Positions 1,084 to 13,248 of a stretch of DNA of 52,976 nt are shown here, in pieces. Below the pieces are notes generated by a model. The model was not told the DNA's origin, ran no database searches, and worked only from the letters and a program-made list of their open reading frames with translations. This DNA comes from a phage. Numbering within the stretch: the stretch's first letter is position 1; every line of letters starts with the position of its first letter. The stretch lies in the sequence record PZ049337.1. One strand, given 5' to 3'. Both the position numbers and the translations under genes were made by a program.

Positions 1084-1124
1084 TTGAATTCCAAATTAAA
1101 GGCTCCCGAAGGAGCCAATTATGA

Positions 1125-1991
1125 TTAAAAGGGCATACCTGTGCCGCCAGCAGCACCACCTTCAGCTTCACGCTGTGCTTTCGCAGCAGCCTGTGCTTCC
1201 AGTTCAGCTTTCATAGCTGCATCAACTTCTTCATCAGAAGCCTGATTCGGTACAGCACCAGCATCGGCAGGTTTGCCACCTAACAGAGCAGACAGCTTGG
1301 TCTTGTAGAAATCAACACCGGAAGTAATACGGTTCTTGATTGCATACGGAGATTCGCCACCAGGCAGCTTGTTGAATACTTCCAGGTCTGGTTCAGACAT
1401 GTCGAAGAAGACAGTCGGGTTCACCAGAGCTTTGGCTTCTTTCTTCTCTTTGGACTTCATTGGAGAGAAGGTAGCAACCTTGTTCGCAACCTGACCAGCA
1501 TTCTTGCCGGACTGCTTGGTATATTGAACAATGCCAACAACCAGAGGTTCGGTCAACCAATCTGGTAGGTTCTTGGCAGGATGGCCCTGAATACCTTGTT
1601 CCAGGTTAGGTTTAACTTCCAGAGCATCAATCGCTTTAGCGAATTTGTAGATGTGGGAGTTGTCACCCATGAAGCCATCGGCATTGTAGGTAAACTCAAA
1701 GTCAAACCAACGTGGCTTGTCTTCAAGATTCTTCGCCATCATGATGCCGTCATCTTCGTCTGGGTCTTGAACCATGACCATTTTACCTTCACTGTCAACT
1801 TCTTTCATGTACTCGTCGAGCAGTTCGAAAGTCACCAGAAGTTTCAGGGACGGAGTAGGATATTTAGCAGAACCCGGCTGTAAGCCCAGGTCGATAATAC
1901 GGCAAACACGAGCAGGATAACCCCCCGCTTCCAGTAATGGTGCAGCAGAAGGAGTCTTGTTCGAGGCCAGGGTAGGAGCAGCAAATGCCAT
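1125..1991 (-). CDS. hypothetical protein, possible gp2.5-like ssDNA-binding/annealing protein
   Basis: 288 aa; ATG at 1991 with AGG Shine-Dalgarno; acidic/Ala-rich C-terminal tail ending GMPF; located between polymerase and exonuclease. Function is inferred from position and tail only. Confidence 0.4.
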   Translation of the reverse strand: MAFAAPTLASNKTPSAAPLLEAGGYPARVCRIIDLGLQPGSAKYPTPSLKLLVTFELLDEYMKEVDSEGKMVMVQDPDEDDGIMMAKNLEDKPRWFDFEFTYNADGFMGDNSHIYKFAKAIDALEVKPNLEQGIQGHPAKNLPDWLTEPLVVGIVQYTKQSGKNAGQVANKVATFSPMKSKEKKEAKALVNPTVFFDMSEPDLEVFNKLPGGESPYAIKNRITSGVDFYKTKLSALLGGKPADAGAVPNQASDEEVDAAMKAELEAQAAAKAQREAEGGAAGGTGMPF

Positions 1992-6454: not shown

Positions 6455-7105
6455 TTATTCCTGTTTAATGAGTGCCTCCCAGCAAACAGGAAACAACTCT
6501 GACATAATTTTATTAACTTCTTCTGCAAACAAACGTGCCTCATATTGGGCGTGCTCTGTAGAGCGTTGCTTGTACATATTAGCCCAGCCCAGTAAAGAGC
6601 CAGTCCAAATCCATGTAGTCATCATGGATTGTGGCAACACCATTCGGGCTTGCTCTGGAGCAATCCCCAAACCAATTAACGTTTCATACTCTGCAATGCA
6701 AGCCTTGTTGTGGATTTCCATGCGATAGTGAATATCGTCAGCAAAATCCTGTGGCAATGGTTGTGCAGTCTGAGTCATCAACTTTTCAGGACGACCAAAC
6801 ACCACATCAGGTACAAAGCATTCAATTTCGATTGCTTCGCCATCTTTGTAACGACGGCTAACTTCGTTCCAACGAAAGCCCACCTGGTGCTTACCCAGCT
6901 GCCGCGCAATAAAGATTGGTGCTGTACAACGTAGTGTTACATACGCGTGGGCAAAAGGTGTATTGTGCTTATGCTTTGCGAGAAATTCAATCAGCTTCTC
7001 GTCGCGCAATGTCATCTCGTGGGACTCTGCACCATAAGAGGCTCGTGCAGCATTAACAGTTGTGAGGTCGCTGCCCATGTGGTCAACGAGTGTTGCAGTA
7101 ATCAT
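6455..7105 (-). CDS. thyX: flavin-dependent thymidylate synthase ThyX-like
   Basis: 216 aa; MGSDLTTVNAARASY...HNTPFAHAYVTL...APIFIARQLGKHQVGFRWNEVSRRY aligns with the ThyX signature region (from memory), but canonical RHR is KHQ here. Confidence 0.65.
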   Translation of the reverse strand: MITATLVDHMGSDLTTVNAARASYGAESHEMTLRDEKLIEFLAKHKHNTPFAHAYVTLRCTAPIFIARQLGKHQVGFRWNEVSRRYKDGEAIEIECFVPDVVFGRPEKLMTQTAQPLPQDFADDIHYRMEIHNKACIAEYETLIGLGIAPEQARMVLPQSMMTTWIWTGSLLGWANMYKQRSTEHAQYEARLFAEEVNKIMSELFPVCWEALIKQE

Positions 7106-7161
7106 TTGCTCTCCGGTTCATATGGTGGGAGATTAATTAGCTCCGCACCATAACAATGGTA

Positions 7162-7383
7162 TTATTTTAATGACGCCTGTAAAGACGCATTTAGTACACA
7201 ACGCTTCTCATATTCGCGATGGTTGTACGTGTTTGTCAGTGCTTCCGCAGCTTCTATTGACAAGATTGCAAAACCACCAAAGGCATTGCGAACTTCTTCA
7301 ATATCCATGTGCAGGACTTCACTTGTGATTTGGTTGGCTATTACGGCCTTATAAATCTCTTCGGCAATTTCAGCAGTTTTCAT
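7162..7383 (-). CDS. hypothetical protein (73 aa)
   Basis: Minus-strand ORF directly upstream of thyX; no motif recognised. Confidence 0.4.
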   Translation of the reverse strand: MKTAEIAEEIYKAVIANQITSEVLHMDIEEVRNAFGGFAILSIEAAEALTNTYNHREYEKRCVLNASLQASLK

Positions 7384-7794
7384 GTTTCTCTCCAGTTAAA
7401 ATTTAAGTAAGTGCCCTGACGTGGACTATTACGAACATTACAATACATTGGCTTAAATGATGTTTCCACTGCGGCCAAGACACTTATTAAATTTGATTCG
7501 AACCGCCCAAGTGAATCAGCCTTGTTTATGGGGACCATCGGGGAAAAGTATAAACCCGCTTAATGCTCGCATCATGTTTGAACATTAAGAACCCTTGACT
7601 TGCATATTTCATGTGAATAGGGGCATAGTCTATGTTTAATAGCTAACACCGGACAAGGAGGATTCCAGCTTAGAGCCTGAACTCAGTTCCCGACACATCA
7701 CAATCAGCGCAACTAAGCCGTATCGCTACGGTATGCCAGACGCTAACTTGAGCCTTTTGTACAGAGGCATAACTGTTTGGAAAGTGGCGGGCAC

Positions 7795-7863
7795 GTGACT
7801 GACATTTTGCACATTATGGAAGACGTTTTGCAACACATCTCCTAGTGACTGACATTTGCACTA
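7795..7863. repeat. direct repeat pair GTGACTGACATT(T)TGCAC
   Basis: Two near-identical 19-nt copies at 7795-7813 and 7845-7863 inside an ORF-free block. Confidence 0.5.
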
Positions 7864-7961
7864 GCCCATTGATTTGGTGGATTCGGTGAACCCTACGTTC
7901 ACAATTACACAGTCGGCCTCGGATGCTTCATCCCTATCCCATCGTGCAGGTTTCATTAACT

Positions 7962-8168
7962 CTACGAATCCATTGATTCTTTGTCAGGTTCTGACAGCAA
8001 ATTGCGGAGGAATGTATCCTCAGCGTTATAAAGAAATGCGTAGTAGAGTTGTTTAGCCTTGTTCCGGCTACATCCAAGAACTTGCATAATTTCTACATAC
8101 TGATACTGACGCACTCTATTATTAATGATTGCGTTACGAATGATTGCACGAATGCTAATTTTGTCCAT
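7962..8168 (-). CDS. hypothetical small protein, possible helix-turn-helix regulator
   Basis: 68 aa, basic; segment VRQYQYVEIMQVLGCSRNKAKQLYYAF resembles an HTH; flanked by ORF-free sequence. Confidence 0.3.
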   Translation of the reverse strand: MDKISIRAIIRNAIINNRVRQYQYVEIMQVLGCSRNKAKQLYYAFLYNAEDTFLRNLLSEPDKESMDS

Positions 8169-8594
8169 AGAAGACTACCTTATGTGATTGAGGTTGCGGC
8201 CTTTACGCGGCCAACGTGCCATTAATGCTGGCAAGACAGAGCTAACGTTCTCAAGCACTTTTGTCTAGGTCTGTTCCCGGCCACTGTTCTAGGAAGTGAC
8301 TACCTGAACTTTCTCGCGTTCAATACGAGGCAGCAATTTCAATTGTTATGCCCAGAGCAACTTGCAGGTTTGTTTGAGTTGGAGTCCTGCTTCCAAACGC
8401 ATGGAATTACACCACCAATACTACGAAGTAGCTAGAGTCTCGTTATTTAAAGTCGCGCACTCCCTCGACTGTGATATACGTGTGTTTAAAGTCCCGTACC
8501 GGACTGCCAAATGAAATGCGATGGCGAGCATTTGTTTGGCTGTCGTCACCTTGGTCAGTCTTTTACACCACCAACTAGCTAGGCCATGTTCAAC

Positions 8595-8804
8595 TCACTG
8601 TCGGGTAAGTTGAGAACACTTTTGTGCCCACGTTTCGTTGTGGACTAAAATCTGTGTTTTGGTTTCGCGTGATAAGATTTTAACTTCTGCAACATCCAAA
8701 TAGATTGGTTGTGCAATTAAGCAATAATCACTTACGAACCCACTTTGAGAGCAACTCACTATCGACATTGCTATCAGAACTGCTAGACACTTCTTTCTGA
8801 ACAT
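8595..8804 (-). CDS. outer-membrane lipoprotein, o-spanin (Rz1)-like
   Basis: Lipoprotein signal MFRKKCLAVLIAMSIVS|C with lipobox IVSC; start embedded out of frame in the 3' end of ORF 8728..8964. Confidence 0.45.
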   Translation of the reverse strand: MFRKKCLAVLIAMSIVSCSQSGFVSDYCLIAQPIYLDVAEVKILSRETKTQILVHNETWAQKCSQLTRQ

Positions 8805-8964
8805 GCGATTTAATCTCGATAGATTCTTTTAATGAATCCAGTTGCTTCTCTTTGGCTTCCTGACGCTCCTCGGCTTTGCCTGAGCTTTTGCCTTTGAGGA
8901 ACACTGCAATGAGAATGCCCAATGCAGTCAAGACGCCAAGAAATATTGACTTAAGCTGTTGCAT
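8728..8964 (-). CDS. inner-membrane spanin (Rz)-like protein
   Basis: 78 aa; N-terminal transmembrane helix IFLGVLTALGILIAVFL followed by charged coiled-coil-like segment; overlaps the lipoprotein ORF. Confidence 0.45.
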   Translation of the reverse strand: MQQLKSIFLGVLTALGILIAVFLKGKSSGKAEERQEAKEKQLDSLKESIEIKSHVQKEVSSSSDSNVDSELLSKWVRK

Positions 8965-8972
8965 GAATCACC

Positions 8973-9113
8973 TTAGATGGCGCACGCACCACTTGAACAG
9001 TCGTTATCGCCAGCACCAGGAACGATTGCTTCTTCGTCCTGCTTCTTCTTGAGTTCTTCAATTGCTTCTTCGGCAGCACCGAAGTCCAAATTGTCTAGTG
9101 CATCAATGTCCAT
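8973..9113 (-). CDS. small acidic protein (46 aa)
   Basis: Below the ORF-track cutoff; hand-translated MDIDALDNLDFGAAEEAIEELKKKQDEEAIVPGAGDNDCSSGACAI; GGAG Shine-Dalgarno 6 nt upstream of ATG at 9113. Confidence 0.3.
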   Translation of the reverse strand: MDIDALDNLDFGAAEEAIEELKKKQDEEAIVPGAGDNDCSSGACAI

Positions 9114-9140
9114 GAGGACTCCATGTTATTGTTGAAAGTG

Positions 9141-9235
9141 GGTGGACGAGGTTGGATTCGAACCAACGACACATCTGTCGAACAGATTGCTCTACCTGAC
9201 TAAGCTCTGGAGCAGACCTTCTGAGCTACTCGTCC
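9141..9235 (-). tRNA. tRNA-like gene with expanded D-arm; possible tRNA-Arg(UCG), isotype very uncertain
   Basis: Minus-strand read GGACGAG-TA-GCTCAG...GGTAGAGC...ATCTGTTCGACAGAT...GTTGG-TTCGAAT-CCAAC-CTCGTCC-A: perfect 7-bp acceptor stem, canonical T-arm, classic D-arm halves, but about 22 extra nt inside the D-loop; CCA not encoded. Confidence 0.4.
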
Positions 9236-10393
9236 AAAATTGGGTGGGTTTTGGTAACGCAGGTTTTCCCGAACTGCGAGGCTTGTAGAATCTGTGAGTC
9301 ATCTACTGTGTTTTGACATAACGTGGGATTGATGGTCCCGACTCACTTCATCTCAGGTACAAGGCACTACTTTGCGAGTGCAAGCAGGTGTTGAACCCAA
9401 GTACCAACAGGCAACCTGATTTAATCTACCTTTGTAGATACCATCGGTTATGAGCAGTTTATTTCCATGCTCAGGGCAACTCACTTTAGGGTGAATTAGG
9501 TTACGCAGTGCAGCTTCGAAGTCGCTGCCACAGGTTTGAGATTCCTGTGTGGAGGGAAATCCAGAGGAGCACTTCCCCAAGGAGTTACGTTTCAAATTGG
9601 CATAGCTTCTCACACTAAGCCAATTGAAGACATTCCAGTGTGCTCGTCCGTCCTCTAGAAATATCCAACTGCATAATTAAGTTTGTACTCTGTCACATCT
9701 CCACGCGCACTGGAAGACTTAAGCCTGCATTGCATCGCAGAATACAAATTAATTATTGCTCCGATTTATTAATCACATCTCGAAGCCACAATGCGCCAAA
9801 TTTGGTTACATGGGATTGGAAGACCACGGAGAGAACTTAAATTTAATTAAGCTGCAACTCGCATTTCAGAATCATTTGCATTTATTTTAAATGAATAAAA
9901 CAGTCGCAATAACTTCAGGCAGTTTAGACCCGTCGTAAGACTCAGAAAACTACTTCAATATGGACTCTGGCATTCAACCAGACTCGACTACTTTTCAAGG
10001 CACTACCCTCTACTTTTTCATCACCCGTACTGGATATACTTTCACTGGTGCCCTTCCGCAAAGATTTCTTAAAGCGTTTCCAGGATGTTTCGCGGTAGTG
10101 AATCGCTACTACTTCCAGGGTCTCCACCAATACTTTCTAGTGAGCACGTCCTTCCAGCTAATTGTCTTCTCTTATCGGAGAAGGGTTCGTCCATTGCACA
10201 TCCATATTGAAATAACTTCAATGAACACTCTTGTCTGGGCCATGAGCTTGGGCATCGGCCTACCTCCCAACTCTAATCACAAGAATGCTCATTGAAGCCC
10301 ACTCACTCTGGAATGGGTTCAAGGCAGCACCGGAAAACTTCCAGTGCATGCCAGATCGATTTAGCTTAGTCTCTCAAGTTTGCCATCGGCAAC

Positions 10394-10732
10394 TTAGAAT
10401 ACCGGAGCTTCTTCAACAGCAGCTTCGGCAGCTTCTTCAACAACTGCGTCAGCAACTTTAGCTTCTTTCGGGGTATCGAACTTAGTACGCTCAACTTCCG
10501 GCTCACCAGCTTCAACCCACGGCAGATAGAATGCCAGGAACTGCTCGACGGTGTTCTTCTGCATGGAGCGAGAACGGTCGATAGCGCCAACGGTGTTCAG
10601 GTACGCTTCGGCAGCTTTCTCAATTTTAGCACCGTTTTCCAGTTTGAAGTCATGTGCATTACACTCTGCTTCGGTCAGGAACAGGGAACCATCGTTAGCT
10701 TCGTACTGAGTTACGGTTACAATCTTAGCCAT
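10394..10732 (-). CDS. hypothetical acidic protein with C-terminal ...EEAPVF tail
   Basis: Track ORF 10394..10816; I prefer ATG at 10732 (MAKIVTV...) with AGG Shine-Dalgarno, because the recurring 17-nt motif lies in the upstream extension. Confidence 0.5.
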   Translation of the reverse strand: MAKIVTVTQYEANDGSLFLTEAECNAHDFKLENGAKIEKAAEAYLNTVGAIDRSRSMQKNTVEQFLAFYLPWVEAGEPEVERTKFDTPKEAKVADAVVEEAAEAAVEEAPVF

Positions 10733-10810
10733 TTGTATATACCTTATATTGAATAGTTTTTGCACGCCACGGTGACGCGACTTAGATAAAATTAAAGAGC
10801 CTTTCTCTTT

Positions 10811-10827
10811 CCACATCCAATTAATGT
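10811..10827 (-). promoter_or_regulatory. copy of recurring 17-nt motif (minus strand ACATTAATTGGATGTGG)
   Basis: About 80 nt upstream of ATG 10732. Confidence 0.35.
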
Positions 10828-10856
10828 GTCAGGACTGCTCTGATTTAACAAACAAC

Positions 10857-11531
10857 TCAATACATATTGAATCGTTCGATTGTTTTGATTACCAAATCCT
10901 TTGTCTCAGCGACAGTGAGTTCAGTGATGATTGATTCGTCATAACCCTCAATCTGGATTGCTACAAAACGCCCAACACCTGTTACGGTAAGTCGGTTGGT
11001 TCTGTCACGAACAACTACACCAGCTTCTTGCGCGACTGCTCGCAACAATTTCCAGCGTAAAGTTCGGTTTGGTACAGTAAAGCCCTTTGTCAAGAACAAC
11101 TCTTTCATGAGTTCTCCAAGGCAAACAGCTTCAATGTTTTTTCCTCTTCCAACTAATTCTTGCAACAGGCACAGCGTCAACATTTCTAAATTGTTGAAGT
11201 GACCAGCGCGCTCCAAATTAAAGAACTCTGGAGGAACAGTTGAACGAGATTTAACAGCTTGCTTATATGCACGTTCTTCTTCCTGTGCAGCAAGCATTAG
11301 CATCTCTGGCTTAATGTATTTCATAGCAGAGAAGCCAGCGCGTGTGGCTTTAATTATGCGACAAGCCTCTTTCATCTTGTAGCGTTGCCACTCACCGCGC
11401 TTCGATTCTGGATTAAAATGGACCCACATAATGATAACATCTTCCTTGGCAAGATAGACGGCATCATTATCATTGAGCCATTGCTTGCACGTTGATAGTG
11501 CAATCTCTTTGTCATCATCATGATAAGACAT
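10857..11531 (-). CDS. hypothetical protein (about 224 aa)
   Basis: Track ORF 10857..11588; ATG at 11531 (MSYHDDD...) has AGG Shine-Dalgarno and sits 1 nt after the upstream stop. Confidence 0.45.
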   Translation of the reverse strand: MSYHDDDKEIALSTCKQWLNDNDAVYLAKEDVIIMWVHFNPESKRGEWQRYKMKEACRIIKATRAGFSAMKYIKPEMLMLAAQEEERAYKQAVKSRSTVPPEFFNLERAGHFNNLEMLTLCLLQELVGRGKNIEAVCLGELMKELFLTKGFTVPNRTLRWKLLRAVAQEAGVVVRDRTNRLTVTGVGRFVAIQIEGYDESIITELTVAETKDLVIKTIERFNMY

Positions 11532-11532
11532 T

Positions 11533-11823
11533 TTAGTGGCCTTGTAGGATACGTTTGTTCGCAGTTTCTGCGTCGATTCCCAAATCAACTAATGTAACCA
11601 AGCACTGCGAAATCCGCTCTTGCGCAGCTTTCTCCAGAATTTGGTATTTTTCGTCGTTAACGCCTAACACATTCTTGGCATGAATGAGTGTAGCCATTAG
11701 GCCATGACCCAAAGCAACAGCTTGCATTGCCTGGAGTTCGAAGTTGATTGTGATGCCAGCAAGTTCGTGCTCTTTCTGGATAATCTCAATCAACTCTTCT
11801 TTGGATTTGTCTTGTAAGTTCAA
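11533..11823 (-). CDS. hypothetical protein (96 aa)
   Basis: Minus-strand ORF, 4-nt overlap with the upstream gene. Confidence 0.45.
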   Translation of the reverse strand: MNLQDKSKEELIEIIQKEHELAGITINFELQAMQAVALGHGLMATLIHAKNVLGVNDEKYQILEKAAQERISQCLVTLVDLGIDAETANKRILQGH

Positions 11824-12140
11824 AATGGGACTCCGTAAATTGGTTGGTTAGTTGTCCACTCGCGAGTTGCGATTTGCATGGACTTGTTTGGGCCGTGGTA
11901 GAAGTATTTCTTGACTTCCTCAAGTGTGTATTTAGCACTGCTTTCGAGAATATCTTTGAAAGTGTGCTTCCAGAACCCATCTTTCTCCGAAATTCCTACG
12001 GTAAAGTCGTTGGTGCCGTTGTACCACCAACGTCCACCAACCAGGACGAAGTGGATTGTTTCTTCCCCATCTTCCCCACTTAGAACAGACGTTAGTACAT
12101 TTCTTAATGTCAAAACTTTAGCAGAATGCTTGCGAATCAT
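11820..12140 (-). CDS. hypothetical protein (106 aa) ending ...GVPF
   Basis: ATG at 12140 with GGAGAG Shine-Dalgarno; C-terminal VPF tip. Confidence 0.5.
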   Translation of the reverse strand: MIRKHSAKVLTLRNVLTSVLSGEDGEETIHFVLVGGRWWYNGTNDFTVGISEKDGFWKHTFKDILESSAKYTLEEVKKYFYHGPNKSMQIATREWTTNQPIYGVPF

Positions 12141-12783
12141 AGGAACTCTCCAATTTTCGATTCAGTGTTTGTGACTTCTCTCTTCTCATCTTTTGGCCTC
12201 ATGAAACAGGCCACAGGGTTGCGAAAATAGCCCTATTTTAGGACTATAGCCAACCGTTTGTGTCAATTCTGGATAACTGCATTGGTGAAGGGTTACTCTC
12301 GTTAGGGTGCGATACGCTAATCACATGAGTGTCGTCGCCTTGCGGCTCAGGCGTGTCACAAAGGCTTTGCAACCCTTCCCAATACATTCACCCAAATCCC
12401 AGCGTTGGCGTAGCTGGTGGCTTGGTTTTGTGCGGATTATGCCACTCTAAGCCCTGTTTGTCCGACTTCCTCGGAGCACCAGCGGCTTGTGGCACAAACC
12501 TATTTTCGAATGACTAACATAAGCATGAGGCACAACCCTCTAATTATTCAGCCCTAACAGCTTGCTTATTTAGTACCAATTCATCCCAATACATCGACCT
12601 ATAACAAGTGAATAGCGTTTCTGCGAAGAAGTATTCTGGCCCTTTGGCCTATGTTAAAAGATAAGTGTATTTGATGGAAACATTCCATCGAAAATAACTT
12701 TGTAGAATGAGTCGAACATTCTCACACGTCTAGCGGCCGCAACGGTCTACCGAGTTACAAAGTTATTATCTGATGTTGTTTCT

Positions 12784-12800
12784 TCAATTCCAACTAATGT
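12784..12800 (-). promoter_or_regulatory. copy of recurring 17-nt motif (minus strand ACATTAGTTGGAATTGA)
   Basis: In ORF-free region 12150-13010. Confidence 0.3.
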
Positions 12801-12864
12801 TTCAGAATTATTCCAATATTCCAAACAAAAAGAATAATAAGAATAAATTAAAATAAATGAAGAA

Positions 12865-12900
12865 AGTGCTTGACACCCATTTGGCGATAAGTGTATAATG
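12865..12900 (+). promoter_or_regulatory. sigma70-type promoter on the plus (antisense) strand
   Basis: TTGACA (12870-12875), 18-nt spacer ending TG, TATAAT (12894-12899): consensus -35, extended -10; points opposite to all genes. Confidence 0.4.
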
Positions 12901-12924
12901 CATTTCTTCCCTAAGAGGTCAGAA

Positions 12925-12941
12925 TCAAATCCCACTAATGC
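12925..12941 (-). promoter_or_regulatory. copy of recurring motif, degenerate (minus strand GCATTAGTGGGATTTGA)
   Basis: Adjacent to hairpin 12949-12995. Confidence 0.25.
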
Positions 12942-13011
12942 TTCAGACGAAGTGCCGAAGGCCAATGCGAGTACAAAACCCGCTTGGCACTTCGAAGAAA
13001 CCCGCCTGGAA

Positions 13012-13248
13012 CTATAGTGCTTTCCAATCTGAATCAAACAGTTTCTTTGGTCTTGAATAAATTATCGAATTAATTCCCAAGAAAGTATGATTTCCATACT
13101 TCTTAACTTCCTGGTAAGCAAAACCATCTACCCAATCTCCGGAGTGGGTTTTAATCTTTGTAGCAAACAGGATTCGATAGTAGTGGCCGCGTGGCTGGTG
13201 GAAGAGTATATCTTCTGGCTTGATTGAGCTAATATTTAAATCACGCAT
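13012..13248 (-). CDS. hypothetical protein (78 aa)
   Basis: Minus-strand ORF, tightly packed early-gene block. Confidence 0.4.
   Translation of the reverse strand: MRDLNISSIKPEDILFHQPRGHYYRILFATKIKTHSGDWVDGFAYQEVKKYGNHTFLGINSIIYSRPKKLFDSDWKAL

Follow-up and report, generated by a model that had tools for sequence, protein, structure and literature searches.

A tmRNA-like element with a ten-codon tag frame and without a tRNA-like domain in the phiEcoM-GJ1-like phage genome PZ049337.1 and in other phages

The phage genome PZ049337.1 (52,976 nucleotides (nt), analysed over its full length and referred to below as the window) carries between positions 9236 and 10393 a block of non-coding DNA, in which we found an element related to transfer-messenger RNA (tmRNA). 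The core of this element (9752..9958, minus strand) very probably shares its ancestry with the coding piece of permuted (two-piece) tmRNA, a relationship indicated by blastn, nhmmer, sub-threshold Rfam matches and covariation. It contains a frame for a ten-residue tag, and it lacks an acceptor and a T-arm. On the alignments obtained, the block is this tmRNA-derived core of about 200 nt, then hairpin modules that were gained, lost and reordered among close relatives. By megablast, the window was a near-complete phiEcoM-GJ1-like myovirus genome (Chaseviridae, Carltongylesvirus; phiEcoM-GJ1 itself has 52,975 nt), and about 40 phages matched it with a coverage of 84-92% and an identity of 92-95%. 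The minus strand is the coding direction of the genes around the block.

A distant blastn search with the block recovered about 150 nt (9757-9907) that were conserved far outside the Chaseviridae relatives. Core identity was 83-87% in Erwinia phages of the genus Loessnervirus and 71-84% in Ackermannviridae (Klebsiella phage Magnus and E. coli phage PH4), in siphoviruses of 45-48 kb and in the Schitoviridae phage PGN829.1. The siphoviruses were Queuovirinae-like and had Klebsiella, Escherichia, Salmonella, Vibrio, Aeromonas and Acinetobacter as hosts. In the Felix O1-like Ounavirinae the window block matched a 35-nt piece. The Ounavirinae copy in turn matched at least 485 phage records, from five or more lineages, and in nearly all of the 485 the site was blank or overlaid by hypothetical open reading frames (ORFs) in GenBank. 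In annotated records the match lay in unannotated DNA beside or inside transfer RNA (tRNA) genes and on the tRNA strand; in phiEa21-4 the element takes up the whole of a 418-nt gap midway along the tRNA array. An nhmmer profile built from 26 non-Chaseviridae alignment rows gave a single match in the window, 9901-9760 on the minus strand (E = 3.5e-18); it also recovered the element from five further genera or isolates of Chaseviridae. All loci examined had sub-threshold Rfam matches to tmRNA_permuted, alpha_tmRNA or beta_tmRNA. In the window, a lenient scan returned weak tmRNA_permuted and alpha_tmRNA matches at 9847-9954 (minus strand), the tmRNA_permuted score being 21.2 bits against a gathering score of 47.

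Near its 5′ end the core has the motif AGUUUUC (9945..9951, minus strand), an analogue of the tmRNA D-loop (GGAUUCGA / AUGGUUUCGAC) identified from the RF04321 alignments and from near-invariant columns of our alignment A1, which comprised 30 non-redundant copies with the window as its first row. The analogue is kept in the window as AGUUUUCG; the form in the permuted model is GGGNNNG and then (A)UGGUUUCGAC. The sequence following the motif in the window, UCUUACGACGGG, resembles E. coli UUCGACGGG. Further 3′, at 9847..9879, translation gives a resume codon GCA (9879-9877), the SsrA-type tag frame ANDSEMRVAA (9879-9850) and the stop codon UAA (9849-9847). The stop codon lies in a hairpin (9831..9860, minus strand; GAG..CUUAA-loop-UUAAG..CUC) that was read from the sequence and is present in the predicted fold. 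It is analogous to tmRNA helix 5, and its equivalent covaries in other lineages (CUGG/CCAG vs CUGA/UCAG). An H-type pseudoknot resembling tmRNA pseudoknot 2 (PK2) follows at 9796..9828 (minus strand), with stem 1 formed by CGUGG (9828-9824) and CCAUG (9813-9809) and stem 2 by CCAA (9819-9816) and UUGG (9799-9796). The second pseudoknot, resembling PK3, lies at 9758..9795 (minus strand), with stem 1 formed by CGCAUU (9795-9790) and GAUGUG (9779-9774) and stem 2 by GCUUCGA (9786-9780) and UCGGAGC (9764-9758).

Covariation was counted on a hand-built structure that included the pseudoknots, and compared with partners slid by 1-3 columns and with shuffles. In this structure 90.6% of cells were paired, against 36-48% in the slid controls, and 95 cells were changed at both partners, where no slid control exceeded 14; none of the shuffles matched the observed values on four of the five measures. 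RNAalifold, run on A1, recovered two helices. Both stems of the PK2-like pseudoknot were paired in 99-100% of cells, with both-side changes at three of five pairs in stem 1 and three of four in stem 2. The stem 1 pairs alternate between CG and UA, between GC and AU, and between AU, GC and UA, and those of stem 2 between GC and AU and between AU and GC; stem 2 was 100% paired and showed more compensatory changes within Chaseviridae. The PK3-like pseudoknot has a near-invariant loop (AUUAAUAAA in the window, UGAUUAAUAA) and a stem 1 that was 99% paired, column pair 176/194 being CG in 18 copies, GC in 6 and UA in 6. As its length is variable, stem 2 was read by eye; it differs by lineage and is always complementary (GCCC/GGGC, GCCCUGA/UCAGGGC, GGCGGGAG/CUCCCGCC). 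The PK1 region (CUUUG/CAAAG and a small hairpin) was 68-88% paired with little covariation, and neither the Chaseviridae nor the Ounavirinae form has it. The first-pass annotation of this DNA had named a lack of conservation or covariation in relatives as grounds for dropping a structured RNA; both were clearly found in other phages.

On its minus strand the window reads AAAAUAAAU GCA AAU GAU UCU GAA AUG CGA GUU GCA GCU UAA. Other loci encode ANDDVVLMAA, ANEEVYLAVA, ANDAQFLAVA and ANDDVILMAA, often with two stop codons, and other Chaseviridae genera have an identical or near-identical tag. Since the first scan for copies had imposed the tag pattern, a second, tag-independent collection was built, anchored on the second pseudoknot alone and retaining copies with a 5′ GUUUUC. 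In all 118 copies of this collection the Ala frame ran for exactly 10 codons and then reached a stop, and the remaining two frames ended at variable positions. The resume codon was GCA or GCU, the stops were UAA, UAG or UGA, and no conserved start codon or Shine-Dalgarno sequence preceded the frame. The bases before the resume codon (AAU, ACU, AUC, AAC, AGU) varied as they do in real tmRNAs. Among the 36 distinct ORF sequences codon 10 was invariably Ala (GCU 13, GCC 15, GCG 7, GCA 1), and at codons 1-3 the third base was the sole variable position. By these comparisons the tag frame evolves like a translated tmRNA tag and unlike a sequence kept as RNA alone; as the conserved codons vary at the third position only, the tag is evidently decoded. 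Two further ideas, an internal ribosome entry site-like start at the Ala codon and a pairing between GCGACUUUGCGG and the resume region of the host tmRNA, were considered but carry no weight in this reading.

Bacterial genome contigs scanned with the PK3 pattern gave mostly chance matches, and only five true elements were found (L223, L277, L278, L280 and L293). These bacterial copies, for example that of Rosenbergiella nectarea, encode tags such as ANDDYKLAAA, ANDDQFLAVA, ANDDVVLMAA and ANDDLMLQAA, and some stand directly after a rho-independent terminator. They are presumably located in prophages.

The element resembles permuted tmRNA (RF04321, RF01850) in the order of its parts, its D-loop analogue, the A-rich AUAAAU, the Ala resume codon, the 10-codon AN(D/E)...AA tag, the stop codon within a hairpin and the GG-N-CC pseudoknot that follows. 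Complete permuted tmRNAs on viral contigs also share the resume region AUAAAUGCAAAYGA with it. Unlike permuted tmRNA, the element lacks both an acceptor piece (GGAC, T-arm, acceptor 3′ strand, CCA) and a functional 5′ strand of the acceptor, and its loci score 21-31 bits, where complete phage examples reach 101-165 bits. The loci that we call class A, the window among them, aligned to RF04321 only from the D-loop analogue onward, with (A)UAGUUUUCG in place of the AUGGUUUCGAC of the model. About 110 nt are missing from them, in which the model has the acceptor piece, an intervening segment and then the 5′ strand of the acceptor, and the class A loci other than the window scored 26-31 bits. This 5′ strand is absent in most lineages, and in the window only a non-complementary vestige, GAAGUAG, stands in its place; GAAGUAG-UUUUCUGAGUCUUACGACGGG is colinear with E. 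coli GGGGCUG-AUUCUGGAUUCGACGGG. In several lineages a sigma-70-type promoter (TTGACA-17-TAGATT, TAAGAT or TAATCT) stands where the tRNA-like domain would be expected.

Class B loci have a canonical 5′ end (GGGGNNG...GGUUUCGAC) and an acceptor piece (GGAC, T-arm, CAGCUCC, ACCA) 50-190 nt upstream of the coding piece, with scores of 101-154 bits for tmRNA_permuted and 95-165 for beta_tmRNA. From these acceptor pieces and high scores it follows that complete permuted tmRNA genes occur on viral contigs. The class B loci L017, L020, L029, L053, L098, L101 and L109 are IMG/VR contigs, in which a protein gene begins directly after PK2.

We consider it rather probable that the element is a phage-borne tmRNA derivative, that is, a tag-frame RNA co-transcribed on the minus strand which templates a degron together with a partner. 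The block would be transcribed from a promoter near 10829 together with the aberrant tRNA-like gene that adjoins it, and the transcript may be cut by tRNA-processing or RNase III-type enzymes. The core retains the D-loop-like motif, the pre-resume sequence, the tag with its stop hairpin and the two pseudoknots of what is very probably a permuted tmRNA ancestor, and has lost the aminoacylatable tRNA-like domain (acceptor stem, T-arm, CCA). Exchangeable hairpins and a vestigial T-arm-like hairpin would extend the unit to about 9248, giving it a length of about 700 nt in PZ049337.1. Delivery of the tag RNA would fall to the partner, for which the adjacent tRNA-like RNA is one candidate and the host SmpB, together with an acceptor RNA of some kind, another. 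That a phage-specified degradation tag is added during infection to nascent chains on stalled ribosomes may be inferred, and we give it an even chance. We regard it as possible, though doubtful, that a tmRNA descendant has discarded its own tRNA-like domain and its tag is still decoded, either as a split tmRNA of a new kind with an aberrant tRNA-like RNA or a host RNA as the acceptor in trans, or by template switching onto stalled ribosomes without a covalently joined acceptor arm. By either route many lytic phages (Felix O1-like, Vi1-like, G7C-like and phiEcoM-GJ1-like) would be able to re-specify the degradation tag on stalled host or phage proteins.

Several observations weigh against this proposal. 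Canonical trans-translation requires a charged tRNA-like domain physically joined to the tag template, so the proposed tagging function lacks one of its components. Neither a G3:U70 acceptor stem nor a T-arm or CCA belonging to the element was found, and a scan for G3:U70 acceptors near every tag gave only scattered chance matches. A regular-expression scan found the canonical acceptor piece in no class A locus. In the whole near-complete genome the vestigial GAAGUAG had no complementary strand with NCCA on the transcribed strand, the partner scan over the window yielding mostly chance matches in coding DNA. ARAGORN called only one of 130 copies, and this sole call (L079) was an ordinary one-piece tmRNA; in the window it called neither a tmRNA nor a tRNA. 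In Mooglevirus the element starts at a sigma-70-like promoter and stops 3 nt short of a tRNA-Arg gene, which leaves no room for a hidden acceptor domain. The core alone, moreover, had a fold z-score of only -1.1, in a calculation that ignores pseudoknots.

Among the alternatives we rank the tag template with a partner first, the neighbouring tRNA-like gene as that partner second, a decoy third and a decaying relic fourth. In the second of these the charged tRNA-like RNA at 9235-9140 would be the acceptor piece of an unconventional two-piece tmRNA, joined by base pairing or by an uncleaved tether. Genuine two-piece phage tmRNAs exist, and this gene has the sole T-arm (GGUUCGAAUCC-type) plus acceptor in the window, 16 nt downstream of the vestigial T-arm-like module; a tRNA or tRNA-like gene stood 3′ of the element in all lineages examined. 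Escherichia phage 4HA13 and Faunus have a different, oversized tRNA-like whose large loop, UCGCAGAC, could pair with GUCUGCGA, the 3′ strand of the hairpin before it, but this complementarity had no covariation support, and no convincing complementarity to the tag RNA was seen in the window. The gene also has a complete acceptor stem of its own, with A3:U70 rather than the alanine determinant G3:U70, and the downstream gene differs by lineage (Arg-UCU, Leu, Ile, aberrant forms). We therefore hold this arrangement to be unlikely. The same applies to a decoy or sponge, in which an untranslated mimic of the host tmRNA would titrate SmpB, S1, RNase R or the mRNA channel and so damp trans-translation. 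The D-loop region and the pseudoknots are the protein-contact regions of tmRNA, and the D-loop-like motif and the pseudoknots are the best-conserved parts of the element; the lack of an aminoacylatable domain would also fit an RNA that is not decoded. A precedent may exist in the RNA of mycobacteriophage DS6A, which consists of a tRNA-like domain only and may titrate SmpB (PMC4131195). Mimicry, however, does not predict variation restricted to third positions at the Ala, Asn and Asp codons, nor a fixed length of 10 codons with interchangeable stops, nor tags that differ from the host ANDENYALAA yet keep its chemistry. A dead tmRNA fragment, with the block as spacer or junk hitch-hiking with tRNA genes, is very improbable: the tRNA-like domain has indeed been lost, the surrounding modules are gained, lost and shuffled, and two other ORF-free blocks of the window show no excess folding, but hundreds of genomes from at least five unrelated phage lineages still carry the element. 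Its base pairs show compensatory changes, its reading frame is perfectly intact, and in several lineages it has its own sigma-70-like promoter (TTGACA-17-TAGATT).

The first-pass annotation had proposed a candidate large structured RNA of raised GC content in the block, which would correspond to a single ornate RNA such as GOLLD or ROOL, or to a group I intron. Part of this stood, in that the block contains a conserved, structured RNA on the minus strand beside a tRNA-like gene, and the ORF-free stretch of about 0.7-1.1 kb folds somewhat better than shuffles on that strand. It is not, however, one large ornate RNA, since only about 200 nt are conserved outside Chaseviridae and the remainder is modular and variable. 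Scanning the whole window with cmscan at the Rfam gathering thresholds gave no match, and the GOLLD, ROOL, HEARO, OLE, raiA and group I intron families were all missing from 7000-13100 even at E <= 5. The block was not GC-richer than its surroundings either: at 44.5% GC it lies at the 58th percentile of stretches of its size, the whole window having 43.9%, and in the conserved RNA core the value was only 36%. The ornate-RNA or intron reading is largely refuted by these results, and we give it hardly any weight. Missed small protein genes that would explain the conservation are just as improbable. The absence of a credible gene was borne out, the longest stop-to-stop frames in the block being 107 codons (minus) and 118 codons (plus); only about 11-12% of same-size windows of the genome had equally little open frame. 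Both ORFs named in the first-pass annotation are present (9353..9613, minus strand, GTG start, 86 amino acids; 9960..10295, plus strand, 111 amino acids), and the GenBank records of relatives annotate hypothetical proteins in the block. Neither these two nor four other ORFs of the block matched a PHROG or Pfam family, although control flanking genes matched PHROGs at 6e-26 and 1e-64. The ORF-bearing segments were deleted or replaced in close relatives (phiEcoM-GJ1 lacks 10291-9965; SA91KD lacks 10200-9976 and 9675-9502), and Aeromonas phage phiA050 had single-base indels within 9960..10295. In the segment shared across families the sole frame is that of 10 codons, and it lacks a start codon. 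A protein-coding reading of the block, including its shorter frames, was rejected on these grounds.

Shuffle controls for the two halves of the block gave fold z-scores of -2.9 and -2.7 for the minus strand, against -1.7 and -1.9 for the plus strand (-2.86 for 9959-10393 on the minus strand; -2.68 for 9236-9751 on the minus strand and -1.92 on the plus strand). Promoters of the phage RNA polymerase were located on the minus strand at 12943, 12802, 11161 and 10829, using the core CATTAGTTGGA derived from the phiEcoM-GJ1 annotation. None was found inside 9236-10393, and the nearest upstream was that at 10829 (10810..10829, minus strand; ACACATTAATTGGATGTGGA), with two mismatches to the 'putative promoter 7' of phiEcoM-GJ1. 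The z-scores favour the minus strand as the RNA strand, and the sole promoter for it lies upstream of the block, at 10829. This promoter would drive the gene at 10732-10394 and then, in the same transcript, the entire non-coding block.

Directly 3′ of the core, the window has a 'platform' hairpin of 17-18 base pairs with a variable tip (9675..9754, minus strand; AAUUAAUUUGUAUUCUG ... CAGAGUACAAACUUAAUU), read from the sequence, at the site that is occupied by a GGUAAGAGCAUUG/CAGUGCUCUUUCC hairpin in other lineages. In those lineages a platform hairpin (ACAACAGGUAAGAGCAUUG / CAGUGCUCUUUCCGUUGU) with hypervariable and at times tRNA-like tips lies 3′ of the core, followed by a small conserved hairpin and by a terminal T-arm-like hairpin with C-ACCA-CAAC. 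The platform arms were considered as an acceptor-like terminal helix and this was rejected, because their compensatory changes are copy-specific and show local pairing around each tip. Variable hairpin modules occupy 9300..9674 (minus strand), as seen by pairwise blastn within Chaseviridae; SA91KD lacks 9670-9497, and 9479-9408 is common to Pectobacterium phage PM1. A conserved 3′ module follows at 9248..9298 (minus strand), consisting of UUCUACAAGCCU, a hairpin of CGCAG (9278-9274) and CUGCG (9262-9258), and UUACCAAAAC. Its identity to the phiA050, 4HA13 and Faunus counterparts is 81-100%. The module resembles the class A end ..AAGCCGG-AGAUCAGCA-CCGGC-C-ACCA and is tentatively regarded as the vestigial T-arm/ACCA end of an acceptor piece. 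The ACCA of the module (9255-9252) is not a CCA end, as it reads AUCA or AACA in the window's relatives. The ACCA of class A was likewise rejected as a CCA end, since it sits in the middle of CACCACAAC, to which GUUGUGGUG is exactly complementary.

Upstream of the core lies module Y (9990..10213, minus strand), a structured cassette of about 225 nt that is about 88% identical to Aeromonas phage phiA050. The comparison with phiA050 showed a compensatory change from CUUCUC/GAGAAG to CUCCUC/GAGGAG in addition to 1-nt indels. Module Y is missing from phiEcoM-GJ1 and SA91KD, has no Rfam match and appears to be an exchangeable structured RNA. Module X (10201..10312, minus strand; inverted repeat I1) is predicted to fold into a long hairpin with 34-nt arms and a conserved tip (GGGAGGUAGGCCGAUGCCC...AUGGCCCAG). 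It is found upstream of the core in the window and downstream of it in 4HA13, Faunus and Fifi44. In 4HA13 (1607-2038) an HNH endonuclease gene stands between the tmRNA-like core and module X. A contribution of homing-endonuclease traffic to the module shuffling would fit this gene.

The tRNA-like gene that had been reported to adjoin the block is indeed there (9140..9235, minus strand), though aberrant. It has the acceptor GGACGAG/CUCGUCC, a canonical T-arm and a 3′ ACCCA. Acceptor stem and D arm are separated by about 21 inserted nt, which resemble a partly duplicated D arm. The anticodon loop is UUCGACA, with C at position 37. Its score with the Rfam tRNA model was 27.9 bits, against a gathering score of 29, and covered only model positions 9-63. 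GenBank labels it 'tRNA-Arg; may contain an intron', and ARAGORN called the near-identical genes of phiEcoM-GJ1 and SA91KD as Leu and Ser, respectively, and that of the window not at all. A different tRNA-like of about 115 nt occupies the same place in 4HA13 and Faunus.

With one-piece tmRNA (SsrA, RF00023) the element shares the stop-codon hairpin, the pseudoknots after the tag and the tag chemistry expected for recognition by ClpXP/SspB. Unlike it, the element has no acceptor stem, G3:U70, T-arm, CCA or PK4, and its PK1 appears to be reduced to a weak hairpin. The tmRNAs of the mycobacteriophage Bxz1 group and of Bacillus phage G are likewise phage-borne, but complete. The DS6A RNA is the opposite half of a tmRNA, the element being the tag-plus-pseudoknot half, and that case shows that partial tmRNAs persist in phages (PMC4131195). 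GOLLD, ROOL and group I introns, like the element, adjoin phage tRNA genes and form long ORF-free stretches, but the conserved unit here is about 200 nt, tmRNA-derived and without an Rfam match to those families at any threshold tried.

A survey from 2014 reported tmRNA among RefSeq phages only in mycobacteriophages, phage G and DS6A coming from outside its dataset (PMC4131195). The Felix O1-like, Vi1-like and phiEcoM-GJ1-like lineages were already in RefSeq at that time, and no tmRNA was reported for them (PMC4131195). For the Felix O1-like phages Moogle and Mushroom, ARAGORN 'permuted tmRNA' calls have been published (PMC4319497, PMC4392139). These calls, 'ssrA' in the case of Moogle (PMC4319497), represent the same element, with the tag ANDNVFLAVA. 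In the Moogle call the tag is combined with the 5′ end of a genuine tRNA-Lys and, over a distance of 530 nt that takes in three tRNA genes, with an upstream T-arm/CCA hairpin; our re-run gave a 749-nt 'permuted' construct that borrowed the tRNA-Lys 5′ end. As its 5′ domain is that of tRNA-Lys, the call was judged chimeric and rejected as proof of a tRNA-like domain. No permuted call was reproduced in Mushroom, Michonne, wV8, phiEa21-4 or the window, and the GenBank records of Moogle and Mushroom have no feature at the site of the element. In Citrobacter phage Moogle (622-1370) the gap between tRNA-Asp and tRNA-Lys holds a T-arm/ACCCUUC-GCCA hairpin, with the complement GAAGGGU 4 nt later and a D-arm-like segment, an arrangement suggestive of a permuted tRNA-like unit. 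Apart from the 2014 survey and the two genome announcements, we found no prior literature on the element, and no earlier description of a tmRNA derivative without a tRNA-like domain, although the literature coverage was incomplete.

A tmRNA is defined by a chargeable tRNA-like domain together with a tag template, and this large phage family, which is spread across well-studied enterobacterial phages and some prophages, keeps the template half only. If the tag is used, these viruses would reprogram ribosome rescue in ways that current models disallow; if it is not, the family would be a natural inhibitor or mimic of trans-translation. In practice, an RNA gene lies unannotated in hundreds of deposited phage genomes, often under spurious 'hypothetical protein' calls, and standard tools overlook it (ARAGORN, Rfam thresholds) or mis-assemble it, as in the Moogle call.

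Two of the loci that carry the element had further RNA features nearby. In Escherichia phage PGN829.1 the element lies in a gene-free stretch of about 1.9 kb (about 880-2780). ARAGORN made no call for several tRNA-like units in this stretch that have T-arms and CCA ends, e.g. ...UCUGGUUCGAGUCCAGACGCCGGAACCA. In Klebsiella phage Magnus, a match to the Salmonella small RNA candidate STnc100 (1111-1325, minus strand; 52.9 bits, gathering score 47) was found inside a 2.5-kb run of tiny 'hypothetical' ORFs that reaches from the tRNA genes to the tmRNA-like element.

The first-pass annotation had listed three similar ORF-free blocks, at 7384-7961, 8169-8594 and 12150-12750. All three exist, but they are not alike in their folding. 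The block at 12150-12750 (minus strand) had a fold z-score of -3.3 against shuffles and lies directly downstream of the promoters at 12943 and 12802. It is kept across Carltongylesvirus, shares a 150-nt piece with phiA050 and is probably a structured 5′ leader. The blocks at 7384-7961 and 8169-8594 folded no better than shuffles (z = -0.3 and +0.3). As wholes, the three were conserved only within Chaseviridae. Shorter pieces were more widely shared: 7782-7881 is common to Pectobacterium and Erwinia phages, 8435-8473 was 95% identical in Erwinia phages, and 8541-8580 was 90-92% identical in the 167-kb Serratia phages PS2 and SP1.

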